The position numbers and the translations under genes are program-made. Under the pieces are notes generated by a model. It was not told the DNA's origin, did no database searches, and was given only the letters and a program-made list of their open reading frames with translations. Of a stretch of DNA of 9,473 bases, positions 1,668 through 2,139 are shown in pieces. Numbering within the stretch: position 1 is the first letter of the stretch; each line of letters opens with the position of its first letter. Origin of the DNA: a virus (lineage: Duplodnaviria; Heunggongvirae; Uroviricota; Caudoviricetes); IMG/VR virus record IMGVR_UViG_2703718801_000021, positions 1-9,473 of that record; one strand, 5' to 3'.

Positions 1668-1802
1668 TTATCCGCGGCAGTGGCACCACACTTCAAACAT
1701 TCGTCTCACAATTTCGCGACAGTAGAAACCGTCAACATCTCGCGTCAGGTCATAGCGACTGCCATAACGCTGGTGGACCCATAGTTCAAATGCTTTATTC
1801 AC
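1668..1802 (-). CDS. Hypothetical small protein, 44 aa, GTG start, Cys/His-containing (..FYCREIV..WCHCRG)
   Basis: Hand-translated from the reverse complement; below the ORF-track size cut-off. GTG at 1802..1800 is preceded by AAGGAAG with a 6-nt spacer. It ends 18 nt before the xis start. No recognised family. Confidence 0.25.
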   Translation of the reverse strand: MNKAFELWVHQRYGSRYDLTRDVDGFYCREIVRRMFEVWCHCRG

Positions 1803-1880
1803 TCTTCACTTCCTTTTCATGGCGCGTAATTTTTTCAGGTGAGCTTCCTGCTCTGTTTCTGCCAGTATTTGTCGGTATTC

Positions 1881-2048
1881 CTAGTGATCAATATGTTCAA
1901 ACTGGTTGTTGAATTCACTGATGCGTACTCGACCGGAGTGTCCGTCCATGCGTCGAAAGAACACTGAGTGCTCAGTGCTGCGAGTAATCACCACAGGGTA
2001 TCTGGCTCTGTCCGTGTATATCTGACCACGTTGAATCAGAGCGAACAT
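1881..2048 (-). CDS. Hypothetical small protein, 55 aa (MFALIQRGQIYTDRARYPVVITRSTEHSVFFRRMDGHSGRVRISEFNNQFEHIDH)
   Basis: Hand-translated; below the ORF-track cut-off. ATG at 2048..2046 lies directly after the stop of the upstream 28-aa ORF (TAA AGGA ATG), so any SD is very close. Same strand and orientation as the rest of the operon. Confidence 0.3.
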   Translation of the reverse strand: MFALIQRGQIYTDRARYPVVITRSTEHSVFFRRMDGHSGRVRISEFNNQFEHIDH

Positions 2049-2052
2049 TCCT

Positions 2053-2139
2053 TTATCCCCAGCGGAAAAGCGAATACAGAATAAATGCCACCGCTATTGC
2101 AACTCCAACTGCGGTGAATGCTTCAGGCCAATTCATCAT
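2053..2139 (-). CDS. Hypothetical 28-aa hydrophobic peptide (MMNWPEAFTAVGVAIAVAFILYSLFRWG), single-TM-like
   Basis: ATG at 2139..2137 overlaps the TGA stop of the DUF551 gene (ATGA arrangement) and sits 5 nt after AGGAGGTG. The central stretch AVGVAIAVAFILYSLF is uniformly hydrophobic. Confidence 0.3.
   Translation of the reverse strand: MMNWPEAFTAVGVAIAVAFILYSLFRWG

Follow-up and report, generated by a model that had tools for sequence, protein, structure and literature searches.

Organization of the locus

We analyzed a stretch of viral DNA of 9,473 nucleotides (nt) (IMG/VR record IMGVR_UViG_2703718801_000021, positions 1 to 9,473; hereafter, the window) with a focus on the interval between a DUF551 gene and the excisionase gene xis, which holds a conserved but nearly never annotated 28-codon open reading frame (ORF) that likely encodes a real, translated membrane peptide. 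Judged by its sequence, the whole window is a lambdoid Shiga toxin (Stx) prophage of the BP-4795 type. Positions 1300-2800 are 99.9% identical to the Stx1 phage BP-4795 (offset +16), and prophages integrated beside mlrA in Escherichia coli genomes are as close to this region as BP-4795. The interval between DUF551 and xis is part of the leftward early operon and contains three tightly packed genes. The order of genes on the minus strand is DUF551 (2136-2726), the 28-amino-acid (aa) ORF (2053-2139), a 55-aa ORF (1881-2048), a 44-aa ORF (1668-1802), xis (1395-1649), and int (75-1361).

The three small ORFs had been proposed, as unlisted candidates, in a preliminary description made from the sequence alone, and all of them exist on the minus strand exactly where it placed them. 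The designation as unlisted is appropriate for the 28-aa ORF; however, the 44-aa and 55-aa ORFs match BP-4795 ORF3 and the front of BP-4795 ORF4, respectively, both of which are annotated in GenBank and RefSeq. Curated annotation and the family libraries thus lack one of the three ORFs; another is a known gene, and the remaining one is a known gene that is mutated here. The same description had cautioned that frames of this size may arise by chance. A bare 28-codon frame is indeed not beyond chance, as 39 ORFs of at least 20 aa overlap positions 1000-3000. Since short ORFs are so common here, their existence alone is no proof, and each ORF was therefore compared with its relatives; for the 28-aa ORF, the comparative evidence favors a real gene.

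The 28-codon ORF and its start site

The 28-codon ORF (2053-2139, minus strand) encodes the predicted single-pass membrane peptide MMNWPEAFTAVGVAIAVAFILYSLFRWG, starts at an ATG at 2139-2137, and ends with a TAA stop at 2055-2053. The Shine-Dalgarno sequence AGGAGGTG is located at 2142-2149 on the minus strand, within the 3' end of the DUF551 gene, 4 nt before this first ATG and 7 nt before a second one (2136-2134). The TGA stop codon of DUF551 (2138-2136) overlaps both ATGs. The overlap of start and stop, the strong Shine-Dalgarno sequence, and the hydrophobic character of the product are all as originally proposed. The start that is conserved family-wide is the second ATG, which gives a peptide of 27 aa; the extra first ATG is specific to the BP-4795/VT1-Sakai allele. 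The 27-aa peptide has a 19-residue hydrophobic stretch flanked by Trp (W3 and W26), with a mean Kyte-Doolittle hydropathy of 2.1 for residues 6-24 across 37 distinct peptides, and two small-xxx-small faces (GxxxA/AxxxA) formed by G11, A13, A15, and A17.

The ORF is unannotated in BP-4795, VT1-Sakai, 933W, phi467, and Av-05, as well as in the closely related E. coli prophages processed by PGAP, leaving a gap of ~80 nt in each case. It is called in very few GenBank entries (ETI78407.1, ASL58468.1), and among the loci inspected PGAP has one version, of 40 aa (WP_255625547.1). A protein search with a 45-aa extended variant returned only three entries, two of which are contig-end fragments mislabelled as 'DUF551, partial'. 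Pfam, NCBIfam, PHROG, and PADLOC contain no family for the peptide and returned only inconsistent sub-threshold matches that are typical of membrane segments. Small peptide genes such as this one are missed by annotation because of their size.

Conservation and selection in the 27-aa family

An intact 27-aa ORF is encoded by every BLAST match with 72-84% DNA identity from other E. coli prophages and from a phage-plasmid, and the family shares the consensus M-x-W-P-E-A-F...Y-S-I-C-R-W-G. Members were collected by two motif scans. The start-anchored scan, with a degenerate pattern that fixes only the ATG, WPEAF, and the final WG, returned 120 IMG/VR loci; a relaxed form of this pattern, with other loci added, gave 129 loci with 38 distinct peptides and 59 distinct DNA sequences (set 1). 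A stop codon, which is not demanded by the pattern, directly follows codon 27 in 128 of these 129 loci. The C-terminus-anchored scan (YSICRWG) yielded 47 further family loci (set 2), comprising 40 intact copies of 27 aa (two of them with a GTG start), three copies with an in-frame 6-nt deletion, one stop loss, one nonsense mutation, and two 1-nt frameshifts. One more in-frame deletion was observed in an enterotoxigenic E. coli (ETEC) genome. Among the deletions, three in-frame 6-nt events stand against one that is frameshifting.

Taken over the related loci, about 170 keep both the frame and the length and three are disrupted, which is the frame conservation that the preliminary description had suggested checking. 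Frameshifts and stop codons in relatives, which it had named as grounds for giving up these candidates, affect only ~2% of the copies of the 28-aa ORF, a rate no worse than that of the DUF4222 gene in the window itself.

Substitutions were counted by parsimony on a tree built by the unweighted pair group method with arithmetic mean (UPGMA), with the codons fixed by the respective search pattern left out, and were compared with 2000 neutral randomizations. In set 1, the ORF frame shows 103 synonymous, 127 nonsynonymous, and no stop changes, against a neutral expectation of 71, 154, and 4, respectively. In the other two frames of the same sequences, the counts are 45 synonymous, 157 nonsynonymous, and 28 stop changes, and 46, 182, and 2, respectively, so that the synonymous excess is found in the frame of the 28-aa ORF only. 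Set 2 shows 60 synonymous, 64 nonsynonymous, and no stop changes, where 41, 81, and 3 are expected. The observed synonymous count was reached by 0 of 2000 randomizations in set 1 and likewise in set 2, and the pooled pN/pS ratio of the family is 0.52. Amino acid replacements are mainly of the A/V, V/I, A/T, and F/L types. Columns 1, 3-7, and 26-27 in set 1 and columns 21-27 in set 2 are invariant by construction; in the columns left free, G11, A13, A15, A17, Y21, and S22 are near-fixed. The ORF region carries no signal of RNA structure (fold z = +0.89).

Genomic context and distribution of the 27-aa family

The conserved ATG overlaps the stop codon of the upstream gene, generally as ATGA and in the window as TGATG, and GGAGG or GAGGA is present 7-11 nt before the ATG in nearly all upstream contexts. 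The upstream genes themselves have unrelated C-termini: they include DUF551 tails, a YLxRNGLISVEDVLR tail, the coiled-coil protein L0139 of 933W, an Ea22-like protein (locus L068), and a protein with a beta-clamp domain (locus L009). The downstream neighbors differ as well, with DUF4222 at +4, hok/mok at about +150, ParDE on the opposite strand, and others. BLAST matches break exactly at both ends of the 27-aa ORF, as is usual for separate modules of mosaic lambdoid genomes.

A search of 5426 complete E. coli genomes placed the 93-nt ORF region at 2840 sites in at least 1557 of them; a single genome has up to seven, and 111 of the sites are on plasmids. By tblastn, the ORF is present in 99 phage records, Stx1 and Stx2 phages and Av-05 among them. 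It is also found on 180 plasmids, mostly non-mobilizable and ~90-105 kb in size, from E. coli and Salmonella and, in one case, Klebsiella. Among representatives with one genome per species, the strict pattern is a true match in E. coli and Shigella flexneri only; four other matches were rejected as chance hits, three of them located inside long unrelated ORFs. The Rac prophage, the one prophage of K-12 that was covered, has no copy. The virulent 121-kb Vequintavirinae phage Av-05 (NC_025830.1, 74413-74493) carries an intact ORF, MTWPEAFTTVGVVMAVAFAVYSVCRWG, with the stop/start overlap; thus, the family extends beyond temperate phages.

Many prophages have a hok/sok-type locus ~100-200 nt downstream of the 27-aa ORF, with no further ORF in between (for example, loci L005, L006, and L142); in 933W (AF125520.1, 58832-58909), the 27-aa ORF precedes sokW, mokW, and hokW. 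This pairing may be functional or may represent a common mosaic junction. In the record PP818812.1, deposited as 'Actinobacillus phage vB_Apl-pPE4', the peptide has its most frequent E. coli allele, and a Hok gene follows. Downstream of the stop, 30 nt are shared with 933W without a mismatch; upstream of the start, 26 of 30 nt agree with E. coli locus L141. The assignment to an Actinobacillus host looks worth checking.

A nonsense-truncated DUF4222 gene

The 55-aa ORF (1881-2048, minus strand; ATG at 2048-2046, 4 nt past the stop of the 28-aa ORF) had been regarded as a small gene of its own; instead, it is the front of BP-4795 ORF4, a DUF4222 gene cut to 55 codons by a nonsense mutation. Its product matches the DUF4222 hidden Markov model (PF13973) with 55.3 bits against a cut-off of 27, residues 4-54 aligning to profile positions 2-53 of 53, and also matches phrog_285 (E = 1.1e-20). 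In BP-4795 and RefSeq, the full-length gene has 80 codons, which correspond to positions 1806-2048 of the window. Comparison with BP-4795 places the lesion at 1881-1883, where a T for C at minus-strand position 1883 converts the Gln56 codon CAG to the amber codon TAG. Across positions 1300-2800, this codon is the sole difference from E. coli SCPM-O-B-9504, the closest complete genome. An identical 55-aa allele, also adjoining mlrA, is present on a Logan assembly contig reported for three samples, so that the amber allele looks real and recent and not like a read error.

The 3' remainder of the gene (1806-1880, minus strand; 24 codons and TGA at 1808-1806), which is now untranslated, encodes a C-terminal helix, EYRQILAETEQEAHLKKLRAMKRK, that is conserved in distant DUF4222 members. 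Hence the product in the window lacks the last 25 residues of the full-length architecture (~80 aa with the C-terminal helix EYxxIxAExEQExHLxKLR). An AlphaFold2 model of the retained domain predicts a small SH3-like beta-barrel with a predicted local distance difference test (pLDDT) score of 88. The fold search returned only generic barrels (TraI, MscS, KOW, and PWWP; TM scores of 0.7-0.78, E above 0.03), so no function can be transferred. The normal stop (1808-1806) lies 3 nt before the GTG start of the 44-aa ORF, and amber termination occurs 78 nt further upstream; coupling from the truncated gene to this weak GTG start is probably reduced, as inferred from the spacing. Because the codon lost to the amber mutation encodes Gln, suppression in a supE (glnV44) host would restore the exact wild-type 80-aa protein. 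The mutation is of local interest only, marking this prophage copy as one with a fresh loss-of-function allele.

The 44-aa ORF belongs to the BP-4795 ORF3 family

The 44-aa ORF (1668-1802, minus strand) has the GTG start (1802-1800) and the upstream AAGGAAG (1815-1809) previously noted for it. It is BP-4795 ORF3 (CAD88806 / YP_001449240), and PGAP annotates the same gene in E. coli genomes. The protein belongs to PHROG 3871 (phrog_3871; E = 5.4e-32, residues 1-44 on profile positions 1-44 of 48) and has 58 database homologs in E. coli, Shigella, Salmonella, E. albertii, Pantoea, Serratia, Enterobacter, and Citrobacter. The Cys and His residues that had drawn attention to this ORF are not conserved among the homologs: in an alignment of 28 sequences, C28 is replaced by A in three, C40 by R, Y, or P, H41 by Y, E, S, R, or P, and C42 by L or R. 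Because all Cys and His residues of the family vary, a metal site is unlikely, and a zinc-binding mini-protein was rejected for lack of an invariant ligand set. The residues that are invariant in the same alignment are E6, R16, Y17, L19, D22, Y27, E30, and V32, and the invariant core falls within RYDLTRD-x2-G-x-Y-x-RE-x-V-x-RMFEVW. The AlphaFold2 model (pLDDT 89) contains helices at residues 2-13 and 30-43 with a hairpin-like loop between them, and a fold search with it found nothing similar in the PDB. The product is thus predicted to be a two-helix mini-protein, encoded by an ordinary phage gene that is already listed. The 90%-identity protein cluster of this protein also lists 80-aa DUF4222 proteins without any similarity to it, which looks like a listing or clustering artefact and not a fusion.

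Neighboring genes and signals of the leftward operon

The DUF551 gene (2136-2726, minus strand; PF04448, E = 3.4e-20) is BP-4795 ORF5. The excisionase gene (1395-1649, minus strand) is of the xisR type (DUF1233) and is the next gene of the same leftward operon after the 44-aa ORF. A consensus scan of both strands of positions 1300-3000 found no sigma-70-like promoter motif, and the sole terminator-like hairpin in this region is located on the minus strand at 1384-1367, downstream of xis (CTCCTGGACGTCTGGGAG then GTTTTATGAG). No Rfam family was matched. The lack of promoter motifs and Rfam matches, together with a hairpin only after xis, is consistent with one long leftward operon. Lying in the interval from xis to int, where it overlaps both the start codon of int and its ribosome-binding site, the hairpin might modulate int expression.

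Further upstream, near-perfect identity to BP-4795 extends to ~3371 and collapses from 3372 on (635 mismatches in a position-wise comparison), which points to a mosaic junction or an indel within the Ea22-like gene. Any single complete E. coli genome covers at most 88% of the whole window. At 2729-3082 on the minus strand, a 117-aa ORF with a TTG start appears in the output of the ORF tool; BP-4795 and RefSeq have only a 63-aa gene there (window positions 2729-2920), which overlaps the end of the Ea22-like gene, and the longer form is probably a start-codon artefact.

Comparison with known small proteins

The 27-aa peptide resembles several groups of small single-pass enterobacterial peptides and, by the comparisons made here, is a member of none of them by sequence or locus organization. 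The type I toxin peptides of E. coli include TisB (29 aa), DinQ (27 aa), ShoB (26 aa), IbsC (19 aa), and Hok (~50 aa). The peptide is similar to these in its size class, its one hydrophobic helix, and its short polar ends, and the ORF is likewise prophage-borne and often ~150 nt from a hok/sok locus. In contrast, it has no sequence similarity to any toxin family and is coupled within a long operon, whereas the toxins stand alone and are RNA-repressed. Accordingly, of the hallmarks of type I toxin genes, we found the small hydrophobic membrane peptide (27/28 aa, mean hydropathy 2.1), but neither an own promoter and antisense RNA gene nor a structured mRNA that occludes the Shine-Dalgarno sequence, as the window scans gave no promoter-like site, no Rfam match, and no fold signal.

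Another group comprises the small regulatory inner-membrane proteins of enterobacteria, such as KdpF (29 aa), MgtS (31 aa), PmrR (29 aa), AcrZ (49 aa), and MgrB (47 aa). The 27-aa peptide shares with them a single-pass architecture below 50 aa and small-xxx-small packing motifs, and its ORF is co-transcribed in an operon, as is kdpF; unlike them, it is phage-encoded and has no transporter or sensor gene adjacent. Assignment to KdpF itself (TIGR02115) was rejected, since the match reaches 14.7 bits against a threshold of 26.85, covers only 12 residues, and has phage genes as neighbors. A holin or pinholin was rejected too: the only match is to phrog_785 (E = 0.11) with an artificially extended variant, and the gene lies beside xis/int in the early-left region.

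The third group consists of lambda Kil, Rac KilR, Qin DicB, and the products of the exo-xis ORFs of lambda and Stx phages, which are soluble proteins of 47-73 aa or larger. Here the likeness is in the compartment, between the recombination genes and xis/int, in the expected timing, and in the mosaic, non-essential character. The sequences are unrelated, and in place of a soluble protein we have a predicted membrane peptide of 27 aa.

Interpretation of the 28-codon ORF

The account that best covers the locus as a whole, and that we consider likely, is that the 28-codon ORF is a genuine, overlooked gene for a translationally coupled inner-membrane peptide, followed by a truncated DUF4222 gene and a member of the ORF3 family. 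According to this model, ribosomes that end translation of the upstream gene would re-initiate on the 28-codon ORF at the overlapping ATGA or TGATG, assisted by the GGAGG embedded in the upstream gene. The product would be a peptide of 27/28 residues with its 19-residue hydrophobic helix placed between interfacial Trp residues (W3 and W26), and we infer that it inserts as a single-pass helix into the inner membrane. There it would exert its effect by packing its helix against another copy of the peptide or against a membrane protein of the host or the phage, presumably during early lytic growth or prophage induction.

Several observations weigh against this interpretation. Selection on the 27-aa frame is only moderate (omega ~0.5-0.6), the family includes broken copies at one nonsense and two frameshifted loci, and some copies have W3 replaced by R or lack W3-P4. 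Both sequence sets are motif-selected, with patterns that fix part of the ORF, and substitution counts from related sequences by UPGMA and parsimony over 81 nt are rough. In addition, a search of 8 million full texts did not find the peptide string, nor does it occur in the supplementary material of the Pro-SMP paper or of the translatome papers on Sakai and EDL933, and the large ribosome profiling (RIBOseq) screen of intergenic ORFs in enterohaemorrhagic E. coli (EHEC) Sakai used a minimum of 30 aa, which places a 28-aa ORF outside its scope.

The alternative that survives best is a special case of the favored account, in which the peptide is a membrane-damaging toxin comparable to TisB, DinQ, ShoB, Hok, or a pinholin that is made from the early-left operon after loss of the repressor, oligomerizes via its small-residue faces, and depolarizes or arrests the host. 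This reading follows the preliminary description, which had pointed to toxins and division inhibitors. The size, the single hydrophobic helix, and the alternating Gly/Ala residues at 11, 13, 15, and 17, which are conserved in unconstrained codons, fit such a role, as do the location in an operon region where lambdoid phages carry host-killing functions and a weak sub-threshold resemblance to the glycine-zipper region (PF19029, E = 0.07). The kil gene of lambda is such a host-killing function of the early-left region, and kilR was seen in the Rac prophage. However, no known toxin family is matched, no promoter-like site from which an antisense RNA could be made was seen on either strand of the scanned region, and the mRNA lacks structure and has a strong and exposed Shine-Dalgarno sequence. 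A single genome may also carry up to seven copies, and the frequent adjacency of a dedicated hok/sok locus makes a second toxin less obviously needed. We regard a toxin as rather doubtful; the peptide is no less likely to modulate a membrane protein or to serve in exclusion.

Much less probable is a mere translational relay, in which the ORF hands ribosomes from the upstream gene to the next one (here DUF4222, 4 nt downstream) and the peptide itself is functionless. The start that overlaps the upstream stop, the BP-4795 arrangement with the ORF stop 4 nt before the DUF4222 ATG, and the limited strength of purifying selection would all suit a relay, but in most contexts there is no coupled downstream gene, the next ORF being ~150-350 nt away (hok/mok and others) or on the opposite strand (ParDE); moreover, the length, the hydrophobic character, and residues G11, A13, A15, A17, Y21, and S22 are kept, and synonymous changes are in excess.

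Slightly less probable still is that the frame is not a gene and represents a chance ORF in a spacer conserved as a DNA or RNA signal or as a frameshifted DUF551 tail: short ORFs are abundant, most annotation pipelines skip this one, and a few database entries call contig-end fragments 'DUF551, partial', but the codon-position pattern and the avoidance of stops are specific to its frame, no RNA structure, Rfam family, or promoter or terminator motif lies within it, it follows unrelated upstream genes, the junction is preceded by no slippery heptamer (GTG AAA TGA in the window and AAT CAA TGA elsewhere), and the 'DUF551, partial' entries are cut-off gene calls on short contigs, comparable to a contig-end call seen in the Logan assembly. 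Two specific forms of this explanation were rejected, namely a C-terminal extension of DUF551 by programmed frameshift, as there is no X XXY YYZ heptamer and the same ORF stands behind non-DUF551 genes, and an RNA element, given the fold z-score and the Rfam result.

Implications for lambdoid and Stx phages

Returning to the favored account of a translated inner-membrane peptide, a broader and more tentative proposal is that the WPEAF...RWG peptides constitute a phage effector family that has so far escaped recognition and is very widespread, occurring in ~30% of the complete E. coli genomes as well as on phage-plasmids and in virulent phages. Such peptides would be made with the earliest leftward transcripts and would have the inner membrane as their site of action, where they would either self-assemble into a depolarizing toxin or specifically inhibit or modulate a membrane protein of the host; this is possible, though we would not call it probable. 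Small membrane peptides are systematically overlooked by annotation, and several of them are potent regulators or toxins. Definition of the 27-aa family would give annotators a new entry, as none exists in Pfam, NCBIfam, or PHROGs, and the peptide is a short, easily synthesized candidate for effects on membrane potential, division, superinfection, or induction. The ORF is located in the early operon of Shiga toxin phages (BP-4795, VT1-Sakai, 933W, and VT2-Sakai) and in thousands of prophage copies in E. coli, and if the peptide is made, its expression would coincide with induction of Stx prophages. If the effector proposal is true, lambdoid and Stx phages would gain a new handle on host physiology during induction.

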